Shown: positions 11,970-54,115 of the stretch, in pieces
Layout: each line of letters begins with the position of its first letter
Numbering within the stretch: the stretch's first letter is position 1
Notes under the pieces: model-generated
Told to the model about the DNA's origin: nothing
Seen by the model: only the letters and a program-made list of their open reading frames with translations
Database searches by the model: none
Assembly: GCA_043822345.1 (NCBI GenBank)
Contig: JBDRBW010000009.1
Location: 1 to 58,468, forward strand
DNA length: 58,468 nt
Direction of reading: 5' to 3'
Origin: Patescibacteria group bacterium
Lineage (GTDB): Bacteria > Patescibacteriota > Minisyncoccia > UBA6257 > UBA11618
Made by a program: the position numbers and the translations under genes

Positions 11970-11994
11970 ACCGTGGTTTCCGAGAGCTTGAGAA

Positions 11995-13207: not shown

Positions 13208-13208
13208 T

Positions 13209-26878: not shown

Positions 26879-26960
26879 GTCATCCCGAGCGAGGCGTAGC
26901 CGAGTCGAGGGATCTCATCGATGAGATTTCTCCACTCGCTTTCAGCTCAGTCGAAATGAC
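26879..26960. repeat. family B palindromic element in the groES-groEL spacer
   Basis: gtcatcccgagcgagg...gagggatctcatcgatgagatttctcc...gtcgaaatgac. Confidence 0.8.
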
Positions 26961-27311: not shown

Positions 27312-27385
27312 TGGAGCGGACAAGGAGAATCGAACTCCCATTTCAACCTTGGGAAGGTTGTGTGTTGCCACTACACTATGCCCGC
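27312..27385 (-). tRNA. tRNA-Gly (CCC), CCA encoded
   Basis: Folded by hand: acceptor GCGGGCA/TGTCCGC, anticodon stem CAACC/GGTTG with loop TTCCCAA, T arm GGGAG-TTCGATT-CTCCT, discriminator U, then CCA. Confidence 0.9.
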
Positions 27386-27957
27386 TATTGGCGTTCTATG
27401 GCTTCGCCGGTCCAATGAAAAGTACTAGAAAAGAGATGGACTTTCGCCTGATTTTTTTTGTTTTTTAGCCAATTATCAAAGTCCCGACTTTCTTCATTAA
27501 GTTTTTCTTGTAAAATCTCTTTTTCCGCCTGTGGTATTAGAATTAAATCAACAAAATCAGGAAATTCCAGATTAAACAAGGAAACCGCCGCCGCTTCTAA
27601 TTTAGGATTTTCCAAGTATTTGTCAACCTTATCCAAGACCAACTGGCCGCCATCATCGCCGGTGAAAGCATTAAAACCCTCGGCAACAATCAATTTTTCG
27701 ATTATTTTATCCAGTGTCGCCCGCTCTAAATCTTCCTTTAATTCTTTGATTTTTTCTTCGGTGAGATCGGGAATTTCGTAGGTCTCGATCGCCTGATTAT
27801 AGTATTGTTGGGCAGAGCTGTACTCCTGTTCAAACTGCCACTGCCAAACCAGCTGGGCATTAACCAACGCCAATGGATACCAACCAGATTGCAAAGCATA
27901 AACAAGACCGGTAGCGGAAAAGATTAAGATTAGAAAGACAATGTAGAATCTACCCAT
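27385..27957 (-). CDS. hypothetical membrane-anchored protein
   Basis: N-terminal TM helix, then a helical acidic ectodomain. The stop codon shares its first base with the tRNA-Gly 5' end. Confidence 0.55.
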   Translation of the reverse strand: MGRFYIVFLILIFSATGLVYALQSGWYPLALVNAQLVWQWQFEQEYSSAQQYYNQAIETYEIPDLTEEKIKELKEDLERATLDKIIEKLIVAEGFNAFTGDDGGQLVLDKVDKYLENPKLEAAAVSLFNLEFPDFVDLILIPQAEKEILQEKLNEESRDFDNWLKNKKNQAKVHLFSSTFHWTGEAIERQ

Positions 27958-28096
27958 ATTTTGAAAAATCTAAAAACTAAAGCCCCAAACATCTAAATAA
28001 TACCCCAAAATCTAAAATATTAAACATCTAAACTTATTTTTAGTTTTTATTGTTTTAGTTTATATTTAGATTTTAGATATTTAGTGTTTAGGTTTT
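27958..28096. repeat. AT-rich ctaaa/tttag imperfect palindrome, family E copy 2
   Basis: 28011-28091 is near-identical to 4823-4909. Confidence 0.7.
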
Positions 28097-28127
28097 GTCA
28101 TCATTGTTCCTTCGGAACAATGATGAC
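28097..28127. repeat. GTCAT...ATGAC mini-hairpin
   Basis: gtcatcattgttcc-ttcg-ggaacaatgatgac is a perfect 14-bp stem. It encodes the last residues and the stop of the FtsB-like ORF. Confidence 0.5.
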
Positions 28128-28373
28128 CATTTCTTCGCCTGGAAGGGCATAGTTAAACTTAGCGCGGAGTTCTTTTTCCAGATTTTCTTGGTCGCGAAAG
28201 TATTCCACATCGGCCATCAATTGCCCATTTTCTTTGATAAGCGGATTAAGTTCGGTATTGATTTTTGCCAAATCATTTTCTAAATCCAGTTTCTGACAAT
28301 AGAGATTATAGAGGGCGAATCCTAAAGCAAGAATGCCGATGATAATGATAGTAATAATAATATATTTCATCAA
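28101..28373 (-). CDS. FtsB/DivIC-like septum formation initiator
   Basis: 90 aa: N-terminal TM, a coiled coil, and the typical ...LGYALPGE-like end (FNYALPGEEMV). Confidence 0.65.
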   Translation of the reverse strand: MMKYIIITIIIIGILALGFALYNLYCQKLDLENDLAKINTELNPLIKENGQLMADVEYFRDQENLEKELRAKFNYALPGEEMVIIVPKEQ

Positions 28374-29641
28374 TTATTTGCTTGATTAACTTTTTGCCAA
28401 AAATTATTCCAGTCGGTTATAACATTAGAGATTAGCAAAACGGCGTGAATGCGCCTGCCGGTAGCCACCTCAATTTTTTCGCCAAGATAAATTCCGGCGA
28501 CAACACAATTCACCTTACCATTAATTTTTTCCTTTACGATAAGCGGGGTGCCAATAACTCCCGGCGCCTGCGTTAGTGAAAAATACGGCGTACCGGCAGT
28601 CGCGCCTTGAATTACGAAACCGCCCAGAGGACCACTGCCACGAGCTAAAGATAGTCCGCCATTGACGTCAAATACCAAGCCAAAAACCTCTTGGCCTGCC
28701 TCCAACTTGCCCTCAGCATGCCCGATAACCGGCACCGGCCCCTGTTTTCTGGTATTATCTATCCGATAACCAGCTAATGTTAGCGGCCCAACACCGATTT
28801 TGTGTATCCAACCGGGGGCGTAAGGCCCACTATTCGCCTCAATCGTCCAACCCGGCTGTGGCCGGCCATTGGCGTCATAATGGTCAAACATAGTATCGAT
28901 TCTGCTTAAAACCGGCCTCAATAAAAACCTGATTCCGCCAAGCTCTATTACTCCTCCGTTGATTACTTCCACCGCTCTGAAAGGCTGAAAAGCTGAAAAG
29001 TTCCAAGCATAATCGGGAAAACTAGAAATTAGCGTGGATGGCGTAAGAACATAAGAAATATAAGTTTCTCCCGGATTGGCGCCGGGTACAGGATATTTAT
29101 CCTTTACCGACTGCATCACCAATCCCAGACCCGCCGGCTTGCCAACGTCATCCACCTTGACTAGTCCCTGGGCCAGTTTATTAATCTCACAGGAGTCAAT
29201 GATTAATCTATTGTTTAAAATAGTTTGATAAATAAAGTCCTTAAAGCCGATTAATAGATTGAAATCGGCGCCGAACGCCCCCTGAACCCAGCCCGCGCAG
29301 TTCGGGTCTCGCGCCAATCCGTCAATAGCAAGAAAGAGAGCAAGTAAATGTTTTTTCTCGATTTTGTCCTTGTTTTTAACCGCCTGAATTGCAGCAAATA
29401 AGTTGCTCAACGCCGGAGAGCGGCTAATCGCTGGTAAATGGCGATTACGCACTGCCAAAAGCGCGTCCAGCCATTGATTGATGCTCGCCAATGTTTTCGT
29501 GTCAAATTCCTGCGCCTCCTCGGCTAACAGAGTTTGATTGGAAGTTAAAACATAGGCCTGCCGGCCTATCGTCACCACCCCCAAAAGTACCGCAATTACT
29601 ACTATAAACCACCAAAAATTTCTGGATTTGAAATTGATCAT
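28370..29641 (-). CDS. membrane-anchored extracytoplasmic protein, unknown function
   Basis: N-terminal TM (FWWFIVVIAVLLGVV). Gly-rich C-terminal half. ATGA overlap with the FtsB-like gene. Confidence 0.6.
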   Translation of the reverse strand: MINFKSRNFWWFIVVIAVLLGVVTIGRQAYVLTSNQTLLAEEAQEFDTKTLASINQWLDALLAVRNRHLPAISRSPALSNLFAAIQAVKNKDKIEKKHLLALFLAIDGLARDPNCAGWVQGAFGADFNLLIGFKDFIYQTILNNRLIIDSCEINKLAQGLVKVDDVGKPAGLGLVMQSVKDKYPVPGANPGETYISYVLTPSTLISSFPDYAWNFSAFQPFRAVEVINGGVIELGGIRFLLRPVLSRIDTMFDHYDANGRPQPGWTIEANSGPYAPGWIHKIGVGPLTLAGYRIDNTRKQGPVPVIGHAEGKLEAGQEVFGLVFDVNGGLSLARGSGPLGGFVIQGATAGTPYFSLTQAPGVIGTPLIVKEKINGKVNCVVAGIYLGEKIEVATGRRIHAVLLISNVITDWNNFWQKVNQANN

Positions 29642-29642
29642 T

Positions 29643-30872
29643 TTAAAATCCTAAAACGCTCTTCGTCCAATCACAGCCGAACATTTCTTGTAAGGTTTTG
29701 CGGATGTTGACTGTTTTAAGATCTGTGCCTGAACGTAAGTTTTTTAAAATAGTTTGCACATGATTATCGTTACCAAAAATTTTTAAGGAGTCGTTAATAA
29801 CCTTCATGCTAGTTTCAATTTGATATTTCATAATCGCTTTAAATTGATCGCTATTAAAATAACTGGGATCAGCTTGTTTGAGATATACAGCGGCAGCTAA
29901 ACCAAACATCAAAAAATCAGCTGGTCCGTGGGCGATGTTATTAATAATTAGCTGACTACCAGACAAATCTTCTGTGCGGCCCGCATTTTTAAGTCCTAAT
30001 TTTGTTTGCCCTCCAAAATTATAAGCACCCCATTCATCGAAAATAAAAGTCAAATTATTCCAATCTTTATTGGGTTTAATTAAATAATCATAATATCTGT
30101 TGCCATGAAATGATTTCATGAAATCAGGAACATAATCTCTCATTTCAGAAATCACGCCTTTTGGTTCATCCATCCAATAAAATTGTGCCTTGGTTTTATC
30201 GCCGTCCTTAAAACCAGTATGAACTCCTGTACCACTACCACCTCTCTTGTCTTTCCACTCATTAAAGAGTTCGAACAAGTGTCTGGTAGTGGCATTAATA
30301 CCATGACTTGCTTCGTGACTGCTTGGATTTTTTGTCAATTTCCAATTTTCAGTATTTCTAAACCTTAACTCTAAATCACTATTCCAACGCGCTGAACCAT
30401 AACCTAACGGCTTGCTAATATCCAAAGTCCAAATTTTAAAAGGTGGAATAGTAGGTGCTTCGCCGGGACAATTATCGTCGTTCGGCTCCTTCGGCTTCTC
30501 GGGTGGTTTTGGGACGACCGGCTCGCAGGAAGGGTCGATGAGTTTTTGCATATCACTTTGAGAAATGAACTGCTTTTTGCTGATAAGTAGTATCGCTTTA
30601 GTGATGTTGTCTTTGTCATCTATGTAATGGCCATAGTGGACATAGAAATTCTTATATTTGTCGGGGACTGGCTGGCCAAGTTCGCGGAAATAATCCTCAA
30701 TTTTCACAAATGTATAAGCCGACTCCCCTCGATCTGTTGATTTAACGAATGACGGCTCCGCTCCGGCAAAAATCTCCCGTGGGCTGACTTGGGCGAGTAA
30801 AAGCAAAGCGACGGCGGTGATTAAAATTACTGCCAATGTCCAGATTATTTTTTTGTGTAAAGTGGAACTCAT
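29643..30872 (-). CDS. membrane-anchored extracytoplasmic protein with HExxH motif
   Basis: N-terminal TM, a Pro-rich linker (PKPPEKPKEPNDDNCPGEAP) and SSHEASHG (HExxH). Confidence 0.55.
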   Translation of the reverse strand: MSSTLHKKIIWTLAVILITAVALLLLAQVSPREIFAGAEPSFVKSTDRGESAYTFVKIEDYFRELGQPVPDKYKNFYVHYGHYIDDKDNITKAILLISKKQFISQSDMQKLIDPSCEPVVPKPPEKPKEPNDDNCPGEAPTIPPFKIWTLDISKPLGYGSARWNSDLELRFRNTENWKLTKNPSSHEASHGINATTRHLFELFNEWKDKRGGSGTGVHTGFKDGDKTKAQFYWMDEPKGVISEMRDYVPDFMKSFHGNRYYDYLIKPNKDWNNLTFIFDEWGAYNFGGQTKLGLKNAGRTEDLSGSQLIINNIAHGPADFLMFGLAAAVYLKQADPSYFNSDQFKAIMKYQIETSMKVINDSLKIFGNDNHVQTILKNLRSGTDLKTVNIRKTLQEMFGCDWTKSVLGF

Positions 30873-32974
30873 TTTTTCATTGCGTTTTTGATAGTATTTG
30901 CAATATTTGACGAGCCGTTAATTGACTGATTATTATTTAATATTAAGGTGGGGATGCCCGCTCCCGTCGGAGGATAGTTATTCACTATATTGACATACAA
31001 TTTCCAACTATTGCCATCTTTGTCCTTCTGATTGCCCATCATACCCTTCAATGTCTGGCACGGTGGACAAAACATAGGTTTGTGATCATCGGAAGAAATG
31101 TAAAGCACTCCGATTTTTTTCGGCGCAGTTGGAATTATGGGTATGGTTGCCCAACCGCTGACACCGATCGTCGGCACTAACTTCTCTAATTCACCAATCC
31201 TTTGGCGAAAAATATTTTGCGCGGCAGTTATTTGGTTTTTATAATCTTGATTTGCTTGATTTGAAGGAATGATGGTTTGTATACCTTCCCAAATTTTGAT
31301 TAGTTCTATTAAGTTGCTTCTAAACCAGTTGGCGTAGTTTTTAATATTATCGCCACCACACTCGCTTGCGCCTGAACGCATTTTTTGCAAACGATCCAGT
31401 AAACCATTACTTTTGATAATCTCGCCATTGAACTCAAAATATCTTCTCCATAGTACAAAGTACCACCTGCTTTGCGTGCTTTTGATAATGTTTTGATAGC
31501 TGTCTCTGGGCAATATTTTGGCGGGATCGATATTGATTTTACTAAAATATTCTTTGGTGCTGGCAATCATTTTTTCATTACTCACTCTTTGGCTGTTGGC
31601 TAAATTAATAAACGCATCCAAAACTTTCTTCTGCTCCGGTGAACATTGTTGCCGTTCTTCCTCTTCAATCACCCTACCTTTCAAAATATCACTAATTTCT
31701 TTGGCGATTTTTTTATCGGCATCGCTTAGATTAGGGTCAAGAGTAATATTGGGGTCGGTTGCTATGCATAGTGATGGTTTTTCTGCTGGCGGAGGAGGCA
31801 AATCCGGCCTGGGAGCAACAACCGGCGGCTCTTCCGGCGGCTCCGTAATTAAGAAATTACACTTATCAAAAGCTTTCTTAAATTCATCACTATATTTAAA
31901 CTCGCACTTTTTTGGATTAAGGCCTTTAGCTGTTATTTTTGATTCTAATAAAGTTTGAAAACGGACATATTTGCCACTCTTAATATCTTCAACATATTTT
32001 TGCAGATCAGGATCATTGAGATCCATAATAGGTGTCGCTAGAGCGCATAAATCCTCTTCACCATCATTGTTAGTATCGGTACAATAAGAGAGCAGAATTT
32101 CGCCATCTTTGATGAAGATTTTTTTAATAATTATAGCGCAAGACGCTGTTGGTTGGCATAATTCCGCCATTTTTTTGGGATCGGCTTTTTGGACTGTGGC
32201 AGCCATATCTTTTAATTCAAACTCCATTGTTAATGCGGTGTCCTTATGGCTAGCGCGATTTAACGCGTCCAAATTCACCTGAACATAATGAGAAGCATTA
32301 TCGGGATTGGTGCCAGCGCGAATCCCAAAGTCCATTTCTTTTCCGTTAATAGTTTTAGTAACAACTAGCTTACCTTGTAGATTTGCATACTCATAGTCGC
32401 TAAAGTAAACGGGGTCGCCTGACGGCAGATAGAGTACCCGACTGGCATCGGGCGTAGATTTTTCAAAATCAGCTTTGGTGTCACTGCGGCTAAGCAGAGT
32501 ACTGCGGTATTCCTGAAGATACTTTTGGGCGTTATTTAAACTTTCCGCCAGTTGAGTAAATAGCGTTTGGAGCTTTTGTTCACTAGGACATTGGCCGTTC
32601 TGATTTTTGCCATCTAGCCAGTCAATAATGGATTGGGCTGACGATTCGGCTACACTTAGATTGTATTGAACACTATTAATTTTGGATATTGCTTTATTTA
32701 AAGTTGTGGCATAGTCGCCATTGGGAAATGCCCAAACGGTCCAGCTGGAACTTTTCCAACTCTCTACGGCATTAATAAGATTTCCGGTAGCCGATTGCTG
32801 GTCCTCTAGAAAACCAAAGATAATCTCCAAATCAAAACCGGCTGGTTCAATATATTTTGGGTCTAACGCCAACGCCCGATTGCCAAAAGTTTGCGCTACC
32901 AAAACAAACGCCAGCGCAAAAACTATTAGCAATAACAGATATTTTGACAGTTTTTTCATTTGCAAATAGGACAC
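30869..32974 (-). CDS. secreted modular protein with C-terminal thioredoxin-like CPPC domain
   Basis: Signal or TM segment, a helical region, the linker EPPEEPPVVAPRPDLPPPPAEKP, and C-terminal ...MFCPPCQTL...GIPTLIL (CxxC plus a cis-Pro-like motif). Confidence 0.6.
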   Translation of the reverse strand: MSYLQMKKLSKYLLLLIVFALAFVLVAQTFGNRALALDPKYIEPAGFDLEIIFGFLEDQQSATGNLINAVESWKSSSWTVWAFPNGDYATTLNKAISKINSVQYNLSVAESSAQSIIDWLDGKNQNGQCPSEQKLQTLFTQLAESLNNAQKYLQEYRSTLLSRSDTKADFEKSTPDASRVLYLPSGDPVYFSDYEYANLQGKLVVTKTINGKEMDFGIRAGTNPDNASHYVQVNLDALNRASHKDTALTMEFELKDMAATVQKADPKKMAELCQPTASCAIIIKKIFIKDGEILLSYCTDTNNDGEEDLCALATPIMDLNDPDLQKYVEDIKSGKYVRFQTLLESKITAKGLNPKKCEFKYSDEFKKAFDKCNFLITEPPEEPPVVAPRPDLPPPPAEKPSLCIATDPNITLDPNLSDADKKIAKEISDILKGRVIEEEERQQCSPEQKKVLDAFINLANSQRVSNEKMIASTKEYFSKINIDPAKILPRDSYQNIIKSTQSRWYFVLWRRYFEFNGEIIKSNGLLDRLQKMRSGASECGGDNIKNYANWFRSNLIELIKIWEGIQTIIPSNQANQDYKNQITAAQNIFRQRIGELEKLVPTIGVSGWATIPIIPTAPKKIGVLYISSDDHKPMFCPPCQTLKGMMGNQKDKDGNSWKLYVNIVNNYPPTGAGIPTLILNNNQSINGSSNIANTIKNAMKK

Positions 32975-34887
32975 TTGTAATTTTTTACATCTTTAACGCC
33001 GATCGCAGGATAAAGCGCTTCTAATGATTGCTGTCGCTCTTTTAATCTTCTTTGCGCTTCTACGGAGTTATTTTCTATCCATTCCTTGGGGAAAAATTTT
33101 TCTAAAGCACAGCCACCCCATTTGCATTTTGACGAATGCAATAGCCACTCCCGAAATCGTTTGGCGATTTCTTCGATCGTTGCCCGAGAATAAGTTTCGT
33201 TATCGGCGCGCATTTTTTTGAGGGCATCAATCATCTTGACTAAATCTTTTTGAAAGCTCTCGTTGCTGTCTTTTATCTCTTTTAAGCAGGATAATCGCGC
33301 CCTAGTGTTGGCATCGAGCGTTGATCTAAGCGCCTGATCGGTAAATGACCAGTTAACAATTATTTTGTCAATAATAACGGCCTGAGCGCCAATATTTTTG
33401 GCGGTTAAGCCAACAATTTTGGAAGAGTCAAGTTGGTCAAGTTTAATGTTGGCACTGTCAAGAATAAGATTGGTGGCTTGGCTATTGGTAGGCGGCGGCG
33501 TAGCGCTAAAACCAAAATGGTTAGTTTGAACGGAGCCGTCGCTCATAATAAAAGTGAGGCCAACAAGGGCGCCGGACATAGTTTTATTAAAATTAAGGAT
33601 GAGGTTGTAACTTTTACCGGGATTGAGGGTAAAGTTGGAAACATTAAGCGCCTCGCCTGACCGACCGAAACCAACCCACTCCATCCCCAAATTACCGCTG
33701 TAAATAAGAATTTGATTAATATTAACATTCAATCCTAAGGACTGGTTAAAGACCTGTATAACGCTCGTGTTTTCTTTAAATTGCTCTTCTAATAATCCAA
33801 TCATTGCGTCTAGCTTAGCCAAATCTTCAACAGTTGGTCCAACGCTATCGGGCGGTTCTTGGGGCAGCGGCACCTGGGCCACCGCCGGTAGATTATCAAT
33901 TGCGCAAGGATCATCATCTTGATTAGTGGGTGGTTTCGGCTGTGGTTTGAAAGCGAGACATTGTTTTTTGGCGTCAGCTGTTATAGTAACCGTGCAATTA
34001 AGAAGCGGTTTACCGCCATTATATTGTTTTTCATATGCCTCCCGTACCGGCTCAAAGATATTTTTCGGCGGACCAGAGTTAATAATACTTTCCGCAGAAA
34101 TATTAACAGGTTTTCCATTGACAGTTATTGCAAACTCATCATCGCTCATCCTCTTGATGTTAGTAATCTTCAGTTCGCACTTTTCCGGTGGCGGCTGGGG
34201 CTTGGGCTCGGTTGCCGGCGGTGGTGTTATTTTGCACTGTTGAAATCGCTGAAAATCTTTAATTCTTTGGGCAGCCGCTTGAAGTTCGTTGTTATAGTAT
34301 GTCCGTTCCCCATCAGTCATATAAGCGTCCCATATGCTATTAATAAGCGGTTTGGTATTTTTCAGATACCCTTCAAATTGGCGAAGGGCATTCTGAATTT
34401 TCTGGGACTGAGATACCGAATAGCGAACAACTTGATCGATATATTGTTTGTCGGCCGCGGTAAACTCACCGGTCGTAGTTCTTGTTTGAATCACTCCCAA
34501 ATTTTCTATTGCCCCCGGCTTATCACCTTGACCAACAAGATCGCTTTGTAACTGTTTGAGTGTGCTGATTATATTTTGCTGGTGCTGGATAATATTTGAT
34601 CTGATTGCCCTCTCTTTACCCGCGCCAATACCTCTGGCTTGGTTTATTTTTTGCCGCTGCTCTTGTATTTTTTGATTTAGGTCTCTTATGCCAACATTAG
34701 TTTCGTTAACGCCTTTTTTAAGGCGATTAACGATGTCGTCTATAGTTACGGTACATCCCCCTTGTTGGGCAAAAACAAAACCCGACATTGACCAAATTAA
34801 TACCAACAAAACCAATACTGCGATAAGTATTGACAAAATTATTATTTTATGATATAATTGCATTGGAAGATTAAATTTACCCGTCAT
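32956..34887 (-). CDS. membrane-anchored coiled-coil/Pro-rich protein with C-terminal Cys motifs
   Basis: TM helix, coiled coil, PPPATEPKPQPPPEKC, and a C-terminal CKWGGC ... CPICK. Overlaps the next gene by 19 nt. Confidence 0.6.
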   Translation of the reverse strand: MTGKFNLPMQLYHKIIILSILIAVLVLLVLIWSMSGFVFAQQGGCTVTIDDIVNRLKKGVNETNVGIRDLNQKIQEQRQKINQARGIGAGKERAIRSNIIQHQQNIISTLKQLQSDLVGQGDKPGAIENLGVIQTRTTTGEFTAADKQYIDQVVRYSVSQSQKIQNALRQFEGYLKNTKPLINSIWDAYMTDGERTYYNNELQAAAQRIKDFQRFQQCKITPPPATEPKPQPPPEKCELKITNIKRMSDDEFAITVNGKPVNISAESIINSGPPKNIFEPVREAYEKQYNGGKPLLNCTVTITADAKKQCLAFKPQPKPPTNQDDDPCAIDNLPAVAQVPLPQEPPDSVGPTVEDLAKLDAMIGLLEEQFKENTSVIQVFNQSLGLNVNINQILIYSGNLGMEWVGFGRSGEALNVSNFTLNPGKSYNLILNFNKTMSGALVGLTFIMSDGSVQTNHFGFSATPPPTNSQATNLILDSANIKLDQLDSSKIVGLTAKNIGAQAVIIDKIIVNWSFTDQALRSTLDANTRARLSCLKEIKDSNESFQKDLVKMIDALKKMRADNETYSRATIEEIAKRFREWLLHSSKCKWGGCALEKFFPKEWIENNSVEAQRRLKERQQSLEALYPAIGVKDVKNYKCPICK

Positions 34888-34977
34888 CCTGAACGAAGTG
34901 AAGGATCTTTAAAAGATTCTTCCTGCCCGCAATCGCTACGCCCAAGCGTTGCAGGCGGGCGCAGAGCTCAGAATGAC
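34883..34977. repeat. family A palindromic element with nested ctgcccgc..gcgggc module
   Basis: gtcatcctgaacgaagtgaaggatct-ttaaa-agattcttc[ctgcccgc...gcaggcgggc]..ctcagaatgac. Confidence 0.8.
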
Positions 34978-34995
34978 CTAATTGAAAAGGACGAA

Positions 34996-35118
34996 ATGAT
35001 GAAAAACTTTTTGATTACCGCGCTGATTTTCGGAGCAGGAACAGTTATGGGAGCAGGAATCTGTTATGTCGCGCAGTACGTTTACGCTATCGCGACCATG
35101 GATCTCGGTCCCTTCTAA
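34996..35118 (+). CDS. hypothetical 40-aa hydrophobic peptide
   Basis: MMKNFLITALIFGAGTVMGAGICYVAQYVYAIATMDLGPF after AAAAGGA. A terminator follows. Confidence 0.45.
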   Translation: MMKNFLITALIFGAGTVMGAGICYVAQYVYAIATMDLGPF

Positions 35119-35142
35119 TCCTCCGTTCTCCGACCATCGACC

Positions 35143-35169
35143 GCCCCCGTTCACGGGGGCTCTTTTTTT
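35143..35169. terminator. intrinsic terminator
   Basis: Stem gcccccg-ttca-cgggggc plus a T run. Confidence 0.75.
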
Positions 35170-35175
35170 ATTATA

Positions 35176-36420
35176 TCATTTTTCCATAGGTGTTTTTATC
35201 AACAGGAACAATCCATACCACGAACCGAACCATTGCGATAGTTCGCCGGCGTCCATATTGTTGGGAATAAAACCGGGTGAAATTAAACCTATCGCCTGTC
35301 CCGCTCCCGTCACCACTCCAGCACAAGTAAATTCTTTTGTTTTATTGATAGCATCAAAGGACTGCCTTAATGTCCAGTCAGGTTTAAAAGGACTAATAGT
35401 AACATCAAATATTGCGGGGTAATCATCATTTTTATGCGTCTCCACCCAAGCCGTTAACGCCATCTTTTGATCTTCTGTAAGGGGCTTGATTAATGGCCTA
35501 ATCCAAACAGCGGCTACCTCGTCAGGGTGCATCTGAAGAAATTTGGTGAATTCCACAATGTGAACGCCTCCTTCTCGATCTTCTGATGACATTACCGTCA
35601 CTTGACCATCTTTGTTTACTATTATTCCGGCATGAGTAATATTAGGCCCTTTGTAGATTATTTTGGGGCCTCGCCTGAATAATTCACCCGTAGCAAATAA
35701 TATTAAAGGAGTGTATATATTTCGACCCGATTCAAAAAGCAAATCCCCCTCTTTGGGATCGTAGGGAATTGGCCTGATTAACCGGCCACATTTAGTGCAA
35801 ACAAACGAAGAAATATCTATCAAATAATACCCGCCAGCTTTAAGGGGTTGGTTTTGTGGCTGATAATCACTTTTGCCGATGTCCGGAGCTAGCTTTTCTA
35901 TTATTTCAATTCTTTGTTTTAAATTTGGGATATACTTCTCTTCAATGTTTTTTATCAGAGTTTCGGCATAGGCCTTATTAAAGGGAACTTGCTTTGATGG
36001 AAGTTGATTGAATTTGATTAAAATCTTTAGCCCATTAACCAGTCCCTGTAACTGATCGATCATTGTCTCTATTTTTTTTCTAAATTCTTTAGCAACTGCA
36101 GTAATTTTGTCCTGGTTATAAGGAATCTCACCGGCGCGCATTTTACCTAAAGCAATCCAATCCGCATCTGTGGCCAGCCACTGTTTAAATATTTGAAGAT
36201 AATCCCGATAATCTTTGTAGATAGAAAGTTTAGCCACACTGGCATTTAGTTGGCTATGAATCTCTATCCGCATATCATTTCTTAGGCCCAAAAGCGTTTG
36301 AACAGCTGGTGCTAGTTGATTGTCTCCCGCAAAAATTCGGCCATTAAACCAAAGTAATGAAACTAAAATAACCAACAATAAAACCACCCCTATAAGTAGA
36401 TATGAAACTAACTTGTTCAT
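35176..36420 (-). CDS. membrane-anchored protein with C-terminal permuted papain-like (YiiX/C92-like) amidase domain
   Basis: The order GDLLFESG..., THAGIIV, GGVHIVEF, YPAIFDV, EFTCAGVV (His before Cys) fits permuted NlpC/P60. Confidence 0.65.
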   Translation of the reverse strand: MNKLVSYLLIGVVLLLVILVSLLWFNGRIFAGDNQLAPAVQTLLGLRNDMRIEIHSQLNASVAKLSIYKDYRDYLQIFKQWLATDADWIALGKMRAGEIPYNQDKITAVAKEFRKKIETMIDQLQGLVNGLKILIKFNQLPSKQVPFNKAYAETLIKNIEEKYIPNLKQRIEIIEKLAPDIGKSDYQPQNQPLKAGGYYLIDISSFVCTKCGRLIRPIPYDPKEGDLLFESGRNIYTPLILFATGELFRRGPKIIYKGPNITHAGIIVNKDGQVTVMSSEDREGGVHIVEFTKFLQMHPDEVAAVWIRPLIKPLTEDQKMALTAWVETHKNDDYPAIFDVTISPFKPDWTLRQSFDAINKTKEFTCAGVVTGAGQAIGLISPGFIPNNMDAGELSQWFGSWYGLFLLIKTPMEK

Positions 36421-36471
36421 CTGACTAAATTATAACACTACCCCTAAGATAAATCTCTGTGGATAAAAAAT

Positions 36472-36506
36472 AAACGGCTCAATTTGGATTGAGCCGTTTA
36501 TTTTTT
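36472..36506. terminator. AAACGG..CCGTTT hairpin plus T run
   Basis: aaacggctcaa-tttgga-ttgagccgttt, then attttttt. Overlaps the lepA stop. Confidence 0.65.
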
Positions 36507-38381
36507 GAGCAATTCCTTAAAAATAGAGGTGGGGATTTGGACTTGAGATTTTTCGGCGCGTTCTTGAAGTTTAGCTTTTCCTTTTTGTTGTTTTTTCCAA
36601 AGTTTCATCTTGCGGGTGCGGTCGCCGCCGTAAAGATAGCCGGTAACGTCTTTTTTAAACGCCGAGATGGTCTCGCGGGCAATAATCTTGCCACCCACCG
36701 CCGCCTGAATAGCTTGGACGAACTGCTGGCGCGGCAATAATTCTTTTAACTTTTCCACAGTTTGCCGCGCCTCTCTTTCCAGTTTTTCCTTGGGAACAAT
36801 TCTGGTCAGCCCCGGCACCAGATGGCCGGCGATTAAAATCTCCAACTTTTCCAGATTACTTTTTTCATAACCAATTAGCTTATAACTTAAAGAAGCATAG
36901 CCCTCGGACAAGGATTTTAATTTATCATCAAAATCGCTGATGAGGTCGGCTAGAGGCAGTTTGGCAGTCACTAAAACCAGCTTTTCACCAATATTTTCCG
37001 TCTCAAAACCGCTTAAACGAAACCATTTCTTCAAAGACATCACACCGCCCAAATACTGCGGCGGCGCTACAATCTCCAACTCCACAACCGGCTCCTCCGC
37101 TTCGTCATACTCCGCCGGAAAATCTTTCGGACTATTAATGGGTTTACGACACCCATTAATGGAAATTTGGTAGGTGACGGAGGGGAAGCTGTGAATGGTG
37201 GCGATTTTGAACTCTTTTTGCAAACGCTCGGCGGTAATTTCAAAATGCAATTGTCCCAAAAAACCGCACTTAAACCCTTTGCCCAACAGCTCGCTTTTAT
37301 CTTGCTCAAAAAATAGTGATGAATCGGTAAGCTTTAGTTTTTCTAAAGCATTTTTTAAATCGCTATACTCACTACTATCTTCAGGATAAAAAGAAACAAA
37401 CACCACCGGCTGGGACTCAGCATAGCCCGGCAATACCAGCTTATCAAAATTTGAAATTTGAAATTTAAAATTTGAAATTATCGTATCTCCTATTTTAACT
37501 GGGCCAATATCCTTAATGCCAGTAGCGATGTAGCCAATTTCACCGGCGTTTAATTCTTTGGAAGATTTTAATTGGGGATGAAAATAGCCAACTTCTTTTA
37601 TTTTGGCGCTAGTTTTAGTTGCTAAAAATTGTATTTGATTTCCATTATTAAACCCACCATTAAAAATCCGCACAAAAGCAATCACCCCTCTATGGTCATC
37701 ATAAAGAGAGTCGAAGATAAGGGCGCGAGACACTCCGTCAGATCCTTCACTATGTTCTGGATGACGTGGTGAAGGGACTTTCTTAATAACTTCTTCCAAC
37801 AACTCCTCCACTCCTTCGCCAGTTTTGCCGGAAATTTTTAAAATCTCCTCCGGTTCAACTTTTAGAAGATCGGCGAGGGATTGGACAACCTCCTCCAGAT
37901 CGGGTGGATTGAGATCTATTTTACTAACAGCGCCAATAATGGTCAGGCCGGCTTTTTTGGCGGCATTAAAATTAGCCAGGGTTTGCGCCTGAATTCCTTG
38001 AGTAACATCTACCAGTAAAATCGCTCCCTCAACCGCCGCCAACGCCCGTGAGACCTCGTAAGAGAAATCAGAATGGCCGGGGGTGTCTATTAGATTTAGA
38101 ATGTATAGGCCATTGTCATTCTGAGTTCCGGCTTTAGCCGTGAACGAAGAATCTTTTACAGATCCTTCACTGTGTTCAGGATGACTAAAAGTGTAGTTCA
38201 TCCGCACTGGCGCCATTTTAATGGTAATCCCCCGCTCGCGTTCCGATTCCAGCCGATCCAAATACTGCGGCTTCATCTGCCGCTTTTCTATCGTGCCGGT
38301 AATCTCCAGCATCCGATCAGCCAGAGTTGATTTACCGTGATCAACATGGCTGATAATAACAAAGTTTCTGATATTGTTCAT
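36498..38381 (-). CDS. lepA: translation elongation factor 4 (LepA) carrying two repeat-derived in-frame insertions
   Basis: MNNIRNFVIISHVDHGKST, DTPGH. The ORF opens at TTG 38393, but the ATG at 38381 matches the canonical N-terminus. Confidence 0.95.
   Translation of the reverse strand: MNNIRNFVIISHVDHGKSTLADRMLEITGTIEKRQMKPQYLDRLESERERGITIKMAPVRMNYTFSHPEHSEGSVKDSSFTAKAGTQNDNGLYILNLIDTPGHSDFSYEVSRALAAVEGAILLVDVTQGIQAQTLANFNAAKKAGLTIIGAVSKIDLNPPDLEEVVQSLADLLKVEPEEILKISGKTGEGVEELLEEVIKKVPSPRHPEHSEGSDGVSRALIFDSLYDDHRGVIAFVRIFNGGFNNGNQIQFLATKTSAKIKEVGYFHPQLKSSKELNAGEIGYIATGIKDIGPVKIGDTIISNFKFQISNFDKLVLPGYAESQPVVFVSFYPEDSSEYSDLKNALEKLKLTDSSLFFEQDKSELLGKGFKCGFLGQLHFEITAERLQKEFKIATIHSFPSVTYQISINGCRKPINSPKDFPAEYDEAEEPVVELEIVAPPQYLGGVMSLKKWFRLSGFETENIGEKLVLVTAKLPLADLISDFDDKLKSLSEGYASLSYKLIGYEKSNLEKLEILIAGHLVPGLTRIVPKEKLEREARQTVEKLKELLPRQQFVQAIQAAVGGKIIARETISAFKKDVTGYLYGGDRTRKMKLWKKQQKGKAKLQERAEKSQVQIPTSIFKELLKK
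37740..37765. repeat. family A half element inside lepA
   Basis: agatccttcactatgttctggatgac encodes RHPEHSEGS. Confidence 0.75.
38115..38185. repeat. family A full element inside lepA
   Basis: gtcattctgag...gaagaatctttt-aca-gatccttcactgtgttcaggatgac encodes HPEHSEGSVKDSSFTAKAGTQND. Confidence 0.8.
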
Positions 38382-38426
38382 AAATAGCAACAAAGCTCAA
38401 AGTATCATAACAAACCGCCAAGTGAC

Positions 38427-38628: not shown

Positions 38629-39154
38629 ATTCCAAAATCCCATCTAAATTAGTGTCGTAGAGAATTGCCTCGTTAATAAGACGATAATTTAATAGTTCTT
38701 CATCTTTAAACCAAAGCCCAATCTCTTTTTTGGCGTTTTTGGACTCATCAGAAGCATGAATAATATTACGCACTGCCCGACTATCCCGATCGGCCATTTG
38801 ATAAGAATCAATGGTAAAATCACCACGAATGGTGCCGACGTCTGAATTTAACGGCTCGGTTTTTCCCACTAGCTTGCGAACAATACCAACAGCATGGGCG
38901 CCCTGCCAAGCCATCGCCACCACCGGTCCGGAAGACATAAATTTTTTTAGATTTTCTAGTACTTCTTTACCGGTTCTGCCCAACCATTCCGGATCAACGG
39001 TATAATGTTTTTCAATAAAATCCGGCGTGGGAATAATCATCTTCATACCCACTAATTTAAGCCCGCTTCTTTCAAAGCGGCTAATAATTTCGCCGATTAA
39101 ACCGCGTTGGATGCCATCGGGTTTTATAAGCACTAATGTTTGTTCGTTTTGCAT
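38627..39154 (-). CDS. ndk: nucleoside diphosphate kinase
   Basis: LVLIKPDGIQRGLIGEIISRFE, GTIRGDF, NIIHASD. The ATG at 39154 is preferred; the ORF-track GTG at 39169 lies inside a repeat. Confidence 0.9.
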   Translation of the reverse strand: MQNEQTLVLIKPDGIQRGLIGEIISRFERSGLKLVGMKMIIPTPDFIEKHYTVDPEWLGRTGKEVLENLKKFMSSGPVVAMAWQGAHAVGIVRKLVGKTEPLNSDVGTIRGDFTIDSYQMADRDSRAVRNIIHASDESKNAKKEIGLWFKDEELLNYRLINEAILYDTNLDGILE

Positions 39155-39155
39155 A

Positions 39156-40568
39156 TTAAGATTCTTCACTTCGTTCAGAATGACGGATTGAAAGACCTAA
39201 TTCGTCTAATTGTTCTTTACTCGCTTCGCTGGGGGCATCCATCATTAAATCACGGGCGTCGCCAGTTTTAGGAAAGGCGATGACTTCGCGAATATTGGGC
39301 TCGTCATTAAGAATAGCAACTAGCCGGTCAATACCGGCGGCAATCCCGCCATGAGGCGGAGCGCCAAAACCCAACGCCGCCAGCATATGACCAAAATTAG
39401 ATTTTATTTGGTCGTTTTTAACGCCAATTATTTGCAACACTTTTTTGAGTACTTTGGGATTGTGGCTACGAATACTGCCACCGGCCACCTCCTGTCCATT
39501 AAGCACTAAGTCGTACTGGTTGGTGATAATCTTGCCAATATTTTTCTCCTCCATTAACCATTGCTCATGTTCTTTAAGAGGCGCGGAGAAAGGATTGTGG
39601 GTAAATGTCCATTTGTCTTCTTTTGTTTTTTCGAAAAATGGGAAATTGGTTACCCAAGCGAAAGCCAACTCATCTTTGTCGTCTTTATTTTTGCGCAAGT
39701 CCGGCGAGTCGGTTTTGTATTTTTTTATTACATCAGCGTACTTCAGGCGAGGAAACGGCTTTTTGGTAAGTTTTTTGTGGGGAAAAAGTTTTTCCACCAT
39801 TTCAATAAACAAGCCCTCAATAACACCCATTACATCTTCTTTCTCCACAAATGACATTTCTAAGTCCAATTGAGTAAATTCCGGCTGGCGGTCGCCGCGA
39901 GTGTCTTCATCGCGAAAGCAACGGGCTATTTGAAAATACTTCTCCAACCCCGCCACCATCAATAATTGCTTATATTGCTGAGGAGCTTGAGGCAAGGCGT
40001 AGAACTTGCCGGGGTAGATACGGGAAGGCACAAGAAAATCACGGGCGCCCTCAGGGGTGGATTTGGAAATAATTGGTGTTTCTATTTCTATAAACTCCTG
40101 ATCGCTTAAATAATCCCTGATGAGTTTATTAATGGCATGGCGGCTACGCATATTTTTTTGCATCCGAGGACGGCGTAAATCAAGATAACGATACCGCAAG
40201 CGGCTTTCCTCGCCAATTTCCCTGCCGTCGGTATCAACAGCAATAGGCGGCGTTTCTGCTTTGTTTAACACCTCCAGATTTTCTACCAACACCTCCCATT
40301 TACCTGATTTAAGTTCAGTATTGATTAAATCCTTGGGACGTTTGTTGACTTTGCCGGTAATTTTAACCACCCATTCGGACCGTAATTCATCGGCCTGGCT
40401 AAATAACACTTTTTCTTTAGCGGTAAAAACACACTGCGCCAATCCGCTTTTATCCCTCAAATCTATAAAAATTATCTTGCCGTGGTCACGCCGAGCGCCC
40501 ACCCAGCCCATCAATATAACTTTTTTGCCCTCTTGTTTGCCGATGTCGGCAGTAAGTGTTCTTTGCAT
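39156..40568 (-). CDS. aspS: aspartate--tRNA ligase, bacterial type without GAD insertion
   Basis: QSPQ-like QAPQQYKQLLMV, FRDEDTRGDRQPEFTQLD (motif 2), GGIAAGIDR (motif 3). 470 aa. Confidence 0.93.
   Translation of the reverse strand: MQRTLTADIGKQEGKKVILMGWVGARRDHGKIIFIDLRDKSGLAQCVFTAKEKVLFSQADELRSEWVVKITGKVNKRPKDLINTELKSGKWEVLVENLEVLNKAETPPIAVDTDGREIGEESRLRYRYLDLRRPRMQKNMRSRHAINKLIRDYLSDQEFIEIETPIISKSTPEGARDFLVPSRIYPGKFYALPQAPQQYKQLLMVAGLEKYFQIARCFRDEDTRGDRQPEFTQLDLEMSFVEKEDVMGVIEGLFIEMVEKLFPHKKLTKKPFPRLKYADVIKKYKTDSPDLRKNKDDKDELAFAWVTNFPFFEKTKEDKWTFTHNPFSAPLKEHEQWLMEEKNIGKIITNQYDLVLNGQEVAGGSIRSHNPKVLKKVLQIIGVKNDQIKSNFGHMLAALGFGAPPHGGIAAGIDRLVAILNDEPNIREVIAFPKTGDARDLMMDAPSEASKEQLDELGLSIRHSERSEES
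39158..39184. repeat. family A half element forming the aspS 3' end
   Basis: aagattcttcacttcgttcagaatgac encodes RHSERSEES plus the stop. Confidence 0.75.
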
Positions 40569-43047: not shown

Positions 43048-44664
43048 TTATTTGTCTTTTTTGAGCGCGCCTTCAAGCGCACTACGGAGGGCGGCTATAT
43101 CAACGGATTGTTTTGGTGGTCTAGGAGTTTGAGGTCTAAGATTGGGTTTTTCAGGATGACGAGGGGGGGGCGTTGATAAGATTTCTCCACTACGGTCGAA
43201 ATGACTATGCGGTGGGCGGGGTGGAGACGGACGACGGAAAGATCCTTCACTTCGTCGAGTCAGACTCGACTGCGGTTCAGGATGACGCTGAGGATAATCA
43301 GAATGACGCGGAGTAAGAACCTCACGAAGAGGTTTTTCTTCGCGACGGGCGGCGCGATCGGTGGAAGTTTTTTCCGAGGTGGAAAGCCACTCTCGGGCGA
43401 TTTTTTCCTCCACCGTACTCTTGGGAATAGCATAACGACTGCGAGTGTTTTCTATAATGACATCAATAAAGTTTTCTGCCGATGGAGTGGGAGGCGCCAA
43501 GGTCTTGGCGGCAAAAGGACGAGAAGCCAAGCCATCAATCATTAACTTTATATAAATATGGTATTTTGCCAGATTAACTAGGTCGTTGATATCATACTCG
43601 GGATTAAACTCCTTTTCCACAAACTCGGCGTCTTTGGCGCCGATGCGAAAAATAGCCATCGTCCCCACGTTGCCAAAAATAGCCGAACGAACAGCGTAAG
43701 ATCCCTCATGATCCAACTGGTCTAAATACTGGTTGGCAAGAATGAGCGATAGCCGATATTTACGCGCCTCGGATAAAACATTCACAAAGGACTCGGTGGC
43801 GAAGTTCTGAAATTCATCAACGTATAAGTAAAAGTCACGGCGCTCCTCTTCGGGGACATTAACCCGCGACATCGCCGCTAATTGCAGTTTGGTAATAATC
43901 ATCGCTCCCAACAAAGCCGAATTATCCTCGCCAACTTTTCCCTTGGACAAATTAGCAATCAAAATCTTTCCCTCATCCATAATCTTGCGCATATCAATAG
44001 TAGAGTGCGCCTGCCCCAAGATGTTGCGAATGAGCGGATTGGAAATAAACTGGCCAACTTTATTTTGAATGGCGGCGGTCGCCTCGCTCTCAAAACGTTG
44101 ACTATACTTAGCAAACTCATCCACCCAAAAACTCTTAACCACCGGATCCTTTAAATTACTAACAATCTCTTTACGATACTCGGGATTATTAAGCATCCGC
44201 TGAATGCCCAGTAGAGTCGTCCCCGGATACTCCAACAATGCCAAAAGGGCGTTATTAAGAATATATTGCATGCGCGCCGACCAGGCGTCAGCCCAGATTT
44301 TTTTGAACACTCCCATCATACTGGAAGCCACCAAATGCCGAAAATCGGGACTCACCTCTTCTAATGGATTAAAAGAAATAGGAAATTCAGTATCGGAAGG
44401 GTCAATATAAATTACATCGTCCAGCCGCTCCTCGGGAATAAAGTTAAGAATGGTCTCGGCTGAACCGCCGTGAGGATCCAAAAACGCCACGCCATAACCG
44501 GCCTTAATATCATCAATAATCATATTCTCCAACAGAGTGCTTTTACCGACACCGGTTTTTCCTAAGACATAAACGTGGCGGCGACGGTCGTCATCCTTAA
44601 TACCAAAGCGGCGCGACTCGCCGCGGAAAACCGTCTCGCCTATAGTTGTGATGTGTTCCTTCAT
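43048..44664 (-). CDS. VirD4/TraD-like (DUF87-type) P-loop ATPase, soluble, with repeat-derived C-terminal tail
   Basis: Walker A GKTGVGKST, FLDPHG, Walker B LYVDEFQNF, LILANQYLDQL. No N-terminal TM. Confidence 0.75.
   Translation of the reverse strand: MKEHITTIGETVFRGESRRFGIKDDDRRRHVYVLGKTGVGKSTLLENMIIDDIKAGYGVAFLDPHGGSAETILNFIPEERLDDVIYIDPSDTEFPISFNPLEEVSPDFRHLVASSMMGVFKKIWADAWSARMQYILNNALLALLEYPGTTLLGIQRMLNNPEYRKEIVSNLKDPVVKSFWVDEFAKYSQRFESEATAAIQNKVGQFISNPLIRNILGQAHSTIDMRKIMDEGKILIANLSKGKVGEDNSALLGAMIITKLQLAAMSRVNVPEEERRDFYLYVDEFQNFATESFVNVLSEARKYRLSLILANQYLDQLDHEGSYAVRSAIFGNVGTMAIFRIGAKDAEFVEKEFNPEYDINDLVNLAKYHIYIKLMIDGLASRPFAAKTLAPPTPSAENFIDVIIENTRSRYAIPKSTVEEKIAREWLSTSEKTSTDRAARREEKPLREVLTPRHSDYPQRHPEPQSSLTRRSEGSFRRPSPPRPPHSHFDRSGEILSTPPPRHPEKPNLRPQTPRPPKQSVDIAALRSALEGALKKDK
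43150..43307. repeat. cluster of family A/B half elements inside the ATPase 3' end
   Basis: ttcaggatgac, agatttctccac..gtcgaaatgac, aagatccttcacttcgtcgag, ggttcaggatgac and tcagaatgac in tandem. Confidence 0.75.
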
Positions 44665-47826: not shown

Positions 47827-47838
47827 ATTGTTTTAATT

Positions 47839-47928
47839 GTCATTTCGACCAAAGTGGAGAAATCTCATCATTCTTGCGAACTCAAAGCACTGAGATCTCT
47901 CGACTCGCTATCGCTCGCTCGAGATGAC
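47839..47928. repeat. family B full element spanning the secD stop and the secD-secF spacer
   Basis: gtcatttcgaccaaagtggagaaatctca...tgagatctctcgactcgc...cgagatgac. Confidence 0.8.
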
Positions 47929-50042: not shown

Positions 50043-50098
50043 ATTATCTCATTTTTTATCTTATTATTTTTATTCCCGCCCCCTTCTTTTTTGCGTTC

Positions 50099-50136
50099 CT
50101 GTCCAGTATATCCACGATCGTGGATATACTGGACAG
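50099..50136. repeat. 38-bp perfect palindrome, family F copy 2
   Basis: ctgtccagtatatccacga|tcgtggatatactggacag. Confidence 0.9.
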
Positions 50137-50175
50137 AATGGGTAAAATAAATAAAAAGTGAGGTGAAAAATGATT

Positions 50176-50883
50176 TTATTTTACTTCACTTTGTTTCCTG
50201 ATCAACTTTTCTATATTTAAATTACCCGAGTGATTGATAGAAAAAATACTAATATGCTTATCCATATCTAAATTGTGTAAAAATTGAATAAAATCTTCCG
50301 GCAATTTAATATTTCCACACCAGACGCTTTTTTGAATCATTTGATAACCTAGGAATTTTAAAAATTCTCTAATCCAATCACGAACAGCCCGATGCTTTTC
50401 GGGTATGTCAAACGAAAAGATAATAATCTTCTTTTCTTTTTCTTTCTTGAATTCACTATTAAATAAAGATTGTCTAGCAATCGTCATTCTCAATTCCGCT
50501 ATTTTTCTCTTTCCTTTTTGGGTTAAAGAAATATTTTGGCTGTTGTCTTTTTCAATAAAACCTTCTCTGACTAGTTCATAAATCTTTTTCTGTCTTTTTC
50601 GTCTCTCTTGTTGATAAATTTTCTCGCGTAATTTTCTATCTCTTTCTTGGGTTAGCGCTCTATTTCTTTCTTGGCTTGCTTGTAATTCTTCCGCCGTTGG
50701 CGTCATGTCCATTACGCCCGTACCACCATATCGCTTGATTGGCTGTAATCTTGGATCTGGCGGTATTCGTCTATACTTTACGCTTTCTGATTTTTTATCG
50801 CCTTCCAATATTTCTTTCGCTCCCTTGGCGATGCTCTCTAAAATAGCGAGCGCGTATTCTCCCTTTAATTTAATTTTTTTCAT
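50176..50883 (-). CDS. winged-helix plus Cas2-fold/PaaX C-terminal-like protein (putative regulator)
   Basis: The middle segment YELVREGFIEKD....ISLTQKGKRKI is wing-like. The C-terminal KKIIIFSFDIPEKHRAVRDWIREFLKFLGYQMIQKSVW resembles the Cas2/PaaX_C beta-alpha-beta core. Confidence 0.55.
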   Translation of the reverse strand: MKKIKLKGEYALAILESIAKGAKEILEGDKKSESVKYRRIPPDPRLQPIKRYGGTGVMDMTPTAEELQASQERNRALTQERDRKLREKIYQQERRKRQKKIYELVREGFIEKDNSQNISLTQKGKRKIAELRMTIARQSLFNSEFKKEKEKKIIIFSFDIPEKHRAVRDWIREFLKFLGYQMIQKSVWCGNIKLPEDFIQFLHNLDMDKHISIFSINHSGNLNIEKLIRKQSEVK

Positions 50884-50912
50884 TTGTTCAAATTTAATCT
50901 ATTTCAATCTTT

Positions 50913-54106: not shown

Positions 54107-54115
54107 CAGAGGTGA

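Follow-up and report, generated by a model that had tools for sequence, protein, structure and literature searches.

A variable set of predicted exported proteins between lepA and ftsB in a Patescibacteria bacterium

We analysed a 58,468-nucleotide (nt) stretch of DNA from a Patescibacteria group bacterium (assembly GCA_043822345.1, contig JBDRBW010000009.1, positions 1 to 58,468), referred to below as the window. Its minus strand carries five open reading frames (ORFs), P1–P5, between lepA and an FtsB/DivIC-like gene. On balance, we read them as a recombining, lineage-specific cassette encoding extracytoplasmic proteins that are exported by Sec and tethered by their N-termini, located in a hot spot at the lepA–ftsB junction. 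The cassette may be likened to a "plasticity-zone surface-protein island", and would bring together one known enzyme family and one new family with a possible redox partner. Bacteria of the Patescibacteria, or candidate phyla radiation (CPR), depend on other cells, and most of the proteins that they export lack annotation.

The lepA–ftsB junction and its cassettes

The five ORFs, of 414, 643, 701, 409 and 423 amino acids (aa), appear in the ORF list of the window with the coordinates and lengths given in a preliminary description of this DNA: P1 at 35176–36420, P2 at 32956–34887 (635 aa from the ATG at 34863), P3 at 30869–32974 (696 aa from the ATG at 32959), P4 at 29643–30872 and P5 at 28370–29641. 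Upstream on the same strand lies lepA (36498–38393), a conserved flank with 483 relatives in tblastn, the best of them 69% identical. Downstream, and also on the minus strand, are the FtsB/DivIC-like gene (28101–28373; PF04977, E = 2.7e-8), hereafter ftsB, which overlaps the P5 stop codon, and a membrane-anchored SurA_N/PrsA-like gene (27385–27957) with a weak SurA_N_3 match, followed by tRNA-Gly, groES and groEL. Every one of P1–P5 has a single hydrophobic segment, N-terminal and preceded by a short basic stretch, as called by a Kyte-Doolittle scan with a 19-residue window. This agrees with the one anchor or signal per protein that had been proposed, and makes an extracytoplasmic location of all five proteins plausible. 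Neither a class III signal of the pilin type (G/FTLxE) nor an LPxTG sortase signal was found on reading the sequences.

The junction was viewed in 80 loci from a scan anchored on LepA that took one genome for each GTDB species. The scan returned Patescibacteria only (with labels such as Harrisonbacteria, Paceibacteria, Parcubacteria and similar), and the source genome is that of a Paceibacteria-like CPR bacterium. In about 70 of the 80 relatives, no gene separates lepA from ftsB. Since most of the loci have ftsB starting within about 100 nt of lepA and followed by the SurA_N-like gene, lepA–ftsB–SurA_N-like is taken to be the ancestral order. Homologues of the SurA_N/PrsA-like gene adjoin ftsB in about 60 of the relatives' loci, marking it as a conserved partner. 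Inserts at the junction were seen only in L001 (4.9 kb), L002 (6.1 kb), L004, L007, L045 and L060. Cassettes of four to five genes for exported proteins are restricted to the window genome and its two closest relatives, L001 and L002; the third-closest relative, L003, has no insert, and the inserts of L007, L045 and L060 are short and unrelated. At the junction of L004 (11967–15045) there is a large serine recombinase (Resolvase, E = 1.3e-19, with Recombinase and Zn_ribbon_recom domains), together with a tRNA-Thr (12077–12151) and, on the opposite strand, genes for two multi-pass membrane proteins; this insert looks like an integrative element at a hot spot. The cassettes in three genomes, the recombinase element in L004 and the remaining inserts thus mark the lepA–ftsB junction as an insertion hot spot.

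The four genes of L001 encode, in order, a helical protein ending in CANC, a CPPC protein, a homologue of P4 and an orphan, and the five of L002 a helical protein, a WCPHC protein, a Trypsin_2 protease and two orphans. All nine of these proteins have one N-terminal hydrophobic segment, which brings the count to 14 of 14 for the three cassettes. An all-versus-all comparison of the cassette proteins gave three links only: between P4 and the 357-aa protein of L001 (E = 2e-54, 37% identical), between the P3 tail and the 295-aa CPPC protein of L001 (E = 3e-9), and between the leader of P5 and that of the 366-aa protein of L002. The five-gene order, the conservation of which had been put forward as a check, is not conserved in the relatives; what recurs is the lepA–ftsB locus, the adjacency of CxxC and P4-like genes, and the N-terminal leaders.

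Direct evidence of recombination comes from a comparison of L002 with L081, a marine contig. The two are 87% identical in DNA (L002 13881–14346 and L081 260–737) over the last part of the WCPHC gene and on into the gene that follows, for 95 nt. The similarity stops abruptly at about codon 32, past the leader MINNPLFRKFKENSLWW..., and the sequences beyond the breakpoint encode unrelated heads: a P4 homologue in L081 (P0003, 42% identical to P4) and a Trypsin_2 protease in L002 (E = 1.4e-10). Since the identity ends about 95 nt into the gene and the heads are unrelated, the comparison shows that the head was replaced behind a conserved leader, and the predicted HExxH protein and the predicted serine protease occupy the same slot. 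The leader of P5, MINFKSRNFWWFIVVIAVLLGVVT, resembles the one common to P0003 and the 366-aa trypsin-like protein of L002. The segment GTPLIV...VAGIYLG led us to consider P5 a degenerate trypsin-like protease, but it shares only the leader with the Trypsin_2 protein of L002; P5 has no match in Pfam or PDB, and nothing related was found in the viral contigs.

Reading of the gene junctions modifies the proposal of a translationally coupled operon of five genes. The P2/P3 junction, AAATGAAAA, is an ATGA overlap when P3 starts at the ATG at 32959, as does the 696-aa version on record in the protein collection (P0004); the 19-nt overlap described for these genes (32956–32974) holds only if P3 starts from the GTG at 32974. 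The ATGA overlap of P3 with P4 and the 1-nt gap between P4 and P5 (TAA-A-ATG) were both borne out. P5 and ftsB do overlap, but their junction reads TTGATGA and not literally ATGA, so that ftsB would start either from TTG, overlapping P5 by 4 nt, or from ATG, overlapping it by 1 nt. With these junctions, P2–P3–P4–P5–ftsB is tightly packed. P1, in contrast, is a separate unit outside this chain, set apart from P2 by 288 nt (34888–35175) with an opposite-strand promoter, ORF and terminator, and the coupling therefore extends from P2 to ftsB only.

The P1 head, the helical module and the CxxC motifs

None of P1–P5 had a match in Pfam, NCBIfam, PHROGs, PADLOC or PDB sequences, as anticipated by the preliminary description, which had recognised no named system, and all five are singletons at 90% identity. 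A word-indexed search of 5.8 billion proteins with P1 returned P1 itself only. A P1-based profile, searched against 1.84 billion cluster representatives, matched the secreted proteins P0006 (E = 3e-10), P0007 and P0008, with E from 3e-10 to 3e-5. These three proteins belong to Pfam PF05708, Peptidase_C92 (E = 9.4e-13, 8e-5 and 2.5e-6, respectively), and the joint profile matched the PDB entries 2if6 (YiiX, E = 3.9e-8) and 3kw0 (BcPPNE, E = 7.2e-8).

P1 consists of an anchor (aa 1–32), a helical module, a CTKC motif and a C92-type head at about aa 221–400. When the head is aligned with C92 members, the His of THAGII (at about aa 263), the Cys of FTCAGV (at about aa 366) and the Tyr of DDYPAIF fall in invariant columns. 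The His precedes the Cys, which is the permuted order, and the strand that carries the His is followed, as in YiiX, by an acidic residue (SSED). The catalytic roles of these residues in the YaeF/YiiX family follow PMC3142127, in which lipid-amide rather than peptidoglycan substrates are proposed for the family. Since the joint profile matches YiiX and BcPPNE and the His, Cys and Tyr are aligned, the earlier identification as a permuted papain-like amidase is correct: by transitive homology, the P1 head is a predicted amidase of the YaeF/YiiX (C92) type. P1 is membrane-tethered, like many members of that family (PF05708; 2if6, 3kw0), and differs from them in being fused to a CxxC and to a helical module specific to this genome, and in having about 20 additional residues from the GD motif to the catalytic His.

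P2 and P3 are larger composites. P2 comprises an anchor, a helical N-terminal part, two Pro-rich loops, a beta-rich middle, a helical module and a C-terminal CPICK; P3 comprises an anchor, helical and beta regions, a Pro-rich loop, a helical module and a tail with CPPC at aa 636–639. The modules occupy about aa 54–182 in P1, aa 520–631 in P2 and aa 509–605 in P3, and end in IIEKLAPDIG (nt 35875–35904), SLEALYPAIG and ELEKLVPTIG, respectively. The relationship that had been suggested on the basis of this EKL.P.IG-type motif goes beyond chance in pairwise BLASTP (P1 54–193 with P2 520–641, E = 4e-6; P1 71–214 with P3 509–642, E = 1e-4; P2 545–631 with P3 515–605, E = 4e-4). The L.P.IG motifs are in register, and the three-way alignment has invariant K-M-R and F-R positions as well. 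At a fixed distance past the motif, each protein has a CxxC: CTKC in P1 (aa 208–211, nt 35788–35799), CPIC in P2 and CPPC in P3. The preliminary description had noted those of P2 and P3 but overlooked the one in P1, although it is in register.

The module was searched for with a profile made from full-length P1 and the P2 and P3 modules. HMMER returned only the window's own P1, P2 and P3 from the 1.84 billion representatives, and hmmsearch found the module in none of 95 fetched loci, the cassettes of the nearest relatives included. The module is thus a real paralogous unit, found in this genome alone, and not a general targeting domain. A widespread targeting domain was rejected on the same grounds, and the common scaffold or targeting module that had been envisaged shrinks to three paralogues in one genome. 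The module seems to have arisen recently, by local duplication. A model of the P3 module, with the three paralogues as input, is a helical bundle with a predicted local distance difference test (pLDDT) score of 70–90, and Foldseek matched it to generic four-helix bundles only (E at least 0.29).

The Cys-flanked Pro-rich linkers reported to recur were also found, as four Cys-bracketed loops (P2 aa 218–237 and 310–328, P3 aa 372–403 and P4 aa 116–135). They are restricted to P2, P3 and P4, that is, to 3 of the 41 minus-strand ORFs of at least 150 aa.

The P3 tail contains the thioredoxin-like motifs VLYISS...CPPCQTL and GIPTLIL, both of which are conserved in the L001 homologue. The CxxC proteins resemble oxidoreductases of the ResA/TlpA/CcmG and DsbA/MdbA types in their N-terminal anchor, in the position of the CxxC after a hydrophobic strand, in a GIPT/GIPH cis-Pro-like motif, and in their genomic pairing with cysteine-rich exported proteins. 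They differ from thiol-disulfide oxidoreductases in that the tails of the P3, L001 and L002 proteins have neither a thioredoxin profile match nor a confident model, and in that P2 stops one residue past its CxxC and the 520-aa protein of L001 stops at CANC.

The P4 family

P4 has an anchor, a Pro-rich loop and a conserved C-terminal domain (aa 140–409). The HExxH motif noted earlier is present as HEASH at aa 186–190 (nt 30303–30317); other conserved marks are E236-P237, Y263, D279-E280-W281, R391 and a C-terminal GF. The search for homologues of P4 gave one match, rising to six with a family profile. In total, our set has 16 members, which come from CPR bacteria, from two other bacterial contigs, from nine IMG/VR contigs and from a 229-kb phage-like contig. 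The two non-CPR bacterial contigs both have lipobox leaders, and one is high in GC. Residues H186, H190, E236, P237, P249, Y263, D279, E280, W281 and R391 are invariant in 16 of 16 members; of the HExxH, both His occur in all 16 members and the Glu in 14. The family has no match in Pfam, PHROG or PDB folds. P4 here founds an unannotated family, with a strict H(E)xxH/EP/DEW signature.

A model of P4 based on seven sequences reached a pLDDT of 73.1 and a predicted template modelling (pTM) score of 0.78; in this model, the HExxH and the DEW each begin a helix. E236 and E280 are invariant across the family and are candidate third ligands. With zincin and gluzincin metallopeptidases the family has in common an invariant H-x-x-x-H at a predicted helix start, an invariant DEW at a later helix start, and the fact that a serine protease fills the P4 slot in L002. 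It differs in lacking a sequence or fold match to any zincin, and two of its members have HQxxH. We also considered a lytic transglycosylase, since DEWGAYNxGG resembles the AYNxG of SLT enzymes. The AYN is not conserved in the family, however, and no SLT or lysozyme match was found in sequence or fold either.

P4-like genes have recurrent neighbours. A CPPC or WCPHC protein is encoded directly upstream in the window, in L001 (CPPC) and in L081 (WCPHC), and in L082 a secreted thioredoxin (PF00085, E = 1.4e-9) is encoded two genes upstream; a CxxC protein thus lies near the P4-like gene in four loci. In L084, a Peptidase_M14 carboxypeptidase gene is found directly downstream. In four of the viral contigs that were fetched and in the 229-kb phage-like contig, a membrane-anchored Peptidase_C39_2 lies directly upstream, and the sequences indicate that Peptidase_C39_2 and the P4-like gene are a conserved, unannotated viral gene pair. 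There are no relatives of P4 in 50,697 deposited phage genomes. The viral loci with such pairs are L085/L091 (1678–3241), L086 (4926–6795), L093/L094 (5057–6672), L088/L089 (5929–8362) and L095 (7382–8942). In L088/L089, the Peptidase_C39_2 gene is nearby on the opposite strand and not directly ahead of the P4-like gene. In L085/L091, L093/L094 and L095, the P4-like gene is followed by a gene for a protein of about 282–306 aa, which in L085 has a weak match to glycosyltransferases of family GT8.

A more far-reaching proposal can be made, which we regard as speculative and unlikely. The P4 family may represent extracytoplasmic metal-dependent hydrolases of a new class, each acting with a dedicated partner in a two-part surface-remodelling module. 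For CPR bacteria the partner in this picture would be a thiol-disulfide oxidoreductase, and for large marine phages a papain-like peptidase anchored in the membrane. In the CPR lineage studied here, the module would belong to a head-swapping cassette built of leaders and stalks, by which the enzymes are redirected to new substrates on host surfaces.

Flanking elements, alternative readings and implications

A canonical intrinsic terminator, ACGGCTCAAT-ccaa-ATTGAGCCGT then TTATTTTTT, lies on the minus strand directly 3' of the lepA stop codon (36465–36497), and a TATAAT box is found at 36429–36434, 8 nt ahead of the P1 ATG. We infer that the terminator is the boundary of a separate P1 transcription unit. 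On the other side of P1, the plus strand carries a mini-gene, a 40-codon hydrophobic ORF (MMKNFLITALIFGAGTVMGAGICYVAQYVYAIATMDLGPF, 34996–35118) with an AAGGA ribosome-binding site. It ends in a strong terminator, a GC-rich plus-strand hairpin, GCCCCCGTTCACGGGGGC, with a T-run (35143–35160), located 16 nt past the P1 stop. Its predicted promoter (34830–34858) is TTGACA-17-TATAAT with an upstream TG, a 12/12 match to sigma-70, and falls within the first codons of P2; the transcripts of the mini-gene and P2 would therefore overlap head-to-head. The mini-gene could provide antisense control or encode a small membrane peptide. No homologue of it was found in the relatives' loci that were fetched.

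The 5' untranslated region of the mini-gene contains a copy of a dispersed palindromic repeat, GTCATCCTGAACGAAGTGAAGGATC...GCTCAGAATGAC, which at 34883–34975 lies just upstream of P2 and overlaps the annotated ATG at 34887. The repeat pattern has 6 matches against 0.08 expected. Two copies are in frame within lepA (37739–37766 and 38136–38186), and further positions are 5836–5945, 26879–26960, 39154–39188, 43174–43266, 47836–47870, 54057–54107 and 56880–56920. Through one of the lepA copies, LepA gains a 27-aa loop, FSHPEHSEGSVKDSSFTAKAGTQNDNG, which its counterparts in L001, L002 and L004 lack; such in-frame copies resemble the in-frame palindromic elements of Rickettsia.

Other elements occur elsewhere in the window. 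An AT-rich element of inverted and tandem units of about 35 nt (AAAACTTAAAAACTAAAATCCTAAAC...) at 27965–28096 takes up the 143 nt that separate ftsB from the SurA_N-like gene, two genes that abut in relatives, and a second copy, 88% similar, is found at 4778–4916. A second palindromic family, CTGTCCAGTATATCCACGATCGTGGATATACTGGACAG, occurs at 6086–6124, 50084–50165, 50888–50979 and 58401–58447. Two of its copies, as inverted arms of 78 nt separated by 726 nt, flank an ORF (50176–50883) in a low-GC stretch (0.36); this may be a small mobile element. At 10001–14000, a region that holds a tRNA-Ser (12961–13047), the GC content falls to 0.36–0.38 compared to a contig average of about 0.43–0.45, and this may be another island.

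Could the cassette itself be the remnant or cargo of a mobile element or phage, integrated at lepA–ftsB, with genes that serve the element in lysis, superinfection exclusion or host takeover? The large serine recombinase in L004 shows the junction to be an integration site, most relatives lack the cassette, and the region contains dispersed palindromic repeats and the opposite-strand mini-gene. Moreover, nine IMG/VR contigs and the 229-kb contig carry P4-family genes beside C39-like peptidases. Such an origin nevertheless seems improbable to us, since the window between 28370 and 36497 holds no integrase or recombinase, lacks genes for structural proteins or replication, and shows neither a tRNA nor an att-like boundary, and the GC content of the cassette region (0.39–0.42) is near the contig value. 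P5, the last gene, overlaps ftsB, and deposited phage genomes have no relative of P4. Finally, three genomes with LepA only 67–69% identical have cassettes at the same site, which implies long residence.

The close packing of P2–P5 with ftsB, upstream of a PrsA/SurA_N-like chaperone gene, raises another alternative, namely that these are divisome-associated wall-remodelling enzymes, co-expressed with FtsB and acting on peptidoglycan or lipoproteins at the septum. The NlpC/P60 superfamily is best known for its peptidoglycan endopeptidases, and P4-like genes have M14, C39-like and trypsin-like peptidases as neighbours. We consider this unlikely as well. Division proceeds in about 70 of the 80 relatives with nothing encoded between lepA and ftsB, and even among the three cassette-bearing genomes the content is not conserved. 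P1, the NlpC/P60 member, is the one gene uncoupled from ftsB, and enzymes of the YiiX type have hydrophobic S1 pockets thought to be unsuitable for peptides (PMC3142127).

A polymorphic effector or adhesin set for contact with hosts or competitors, with constant leaders and stalks and interchangeable toxic or adhesive heads, is very unlikely: it would account for the sharp breakpoint behind a conserved leader (L081 versus L002, with an HExxH head in one and a trypsin-like head in the other), for the leader of the same type on P5, and for a divergence far faster than that of the flanks (37% identity to L001 for P4, 69% for LepA), and would suit the episymbiotic life described for all cultivated Patescibacteria (PMC11623550), but the overlapping cassette genes leave no immunity-like small genes after the heads, there are no known toxin domains or recognised toxin folds and no PADLOC matches, scans of Pfam, NCBIfam and PADLOC gave no secretion or trafficking domain (of the type V, VI or VII secretion system (T5SS/T6SS/T7SS), LXG or Rhs type), each protein has its own predicted Sec-type leader, and the heads are hydrolase-like housekeeping folds.

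The reading as a lineage-specific, recombining cassette of exported proteins shares with variable surface-protein loci the replacement of heads directly behind a leader, and with plasticity zones at integration hot spots the variation in content among close relatives at a single junction, one of which has a recombinase (L004). Several results weigh against it or against its parts. Export is predicted from hydropathy alone. Most positional equivalents in L001 and L002 have no detectable homology, and their treatment as homologues was rejected, the single-sequence hhalign probabilities being all below 4%. P1 by itself falls below the Pfam thresholds. The thioredoxin-like domain claimed for P3 retains its motifs, but its tail has no Pfam match at E ≤ 10 and no PDB profile match, and aligns with a genuine thioredoxin with an hhalign probability of 56% over 18 columns only; prediction of a thioredoxin fold from three paralogue rows gave too low a confidence, with a pLDDT below 50 for the tail. 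In the P4 family, P0012 and P0013 read HQVSH and so lack the Glu corresponding to E187, and the P4 model has no fold match in PDB or BFVD, zincins included, the best Foldseek results having E of about 1 and a template modelling score below 0.31. P5 and the bodies of P2 and P3 are orphans, and the large-database search covered the modules of P2 and P3 only.

In the mechanism that would follow from the cassette reading, Sec would insert the proteins and hold them at the outer face of the membrane, with the disulfide-stapled Pro-rich loops acting as stalks. The CxxC proteins (through the CPPC tail of P3, and also P1 and P2) might carry out thiol-disulfide exchange, oxidising or isomerising, and thereby fold or activate cysteine-rich neighbours. 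The P1 head would cleave lipid-amide or lipopeptide bonds, and P4, as a putative metal-dependent hydrolase, would act on surface substrates. The surface in question could be the cell's own envelope or that of a host or partner cell, and the fast turnover of heads would mirror changing targets. Expression might occur partly by read-through into ftsB.

Orphan exported proteins abound in CPR genomes, and the cassette itself is therefore not very surprising; the P4 family and the clean swap of heads behind a leader are the parts worth following. The lepA–ftsB junction is a hot spot within a conserved operon, where predicted exported enzymes are gained, duplicated and head-swapped. The P4 signature family is common to CPR bacteria, other bacteria and large viral contigs, always with peptidases or thioredoxins nearby, and the predicted membrane-tethered YiiX-type amidase would tie lipid or lipopeptide chemistry to the CPR cell surface. 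Should host envelopes be what the heads act on, the cassette would offer a tractable case of effectors diversifying in episymbionts; otherwise it would still illustrate cleanly how local duplication and recombination give rise to orphan exported proteins.

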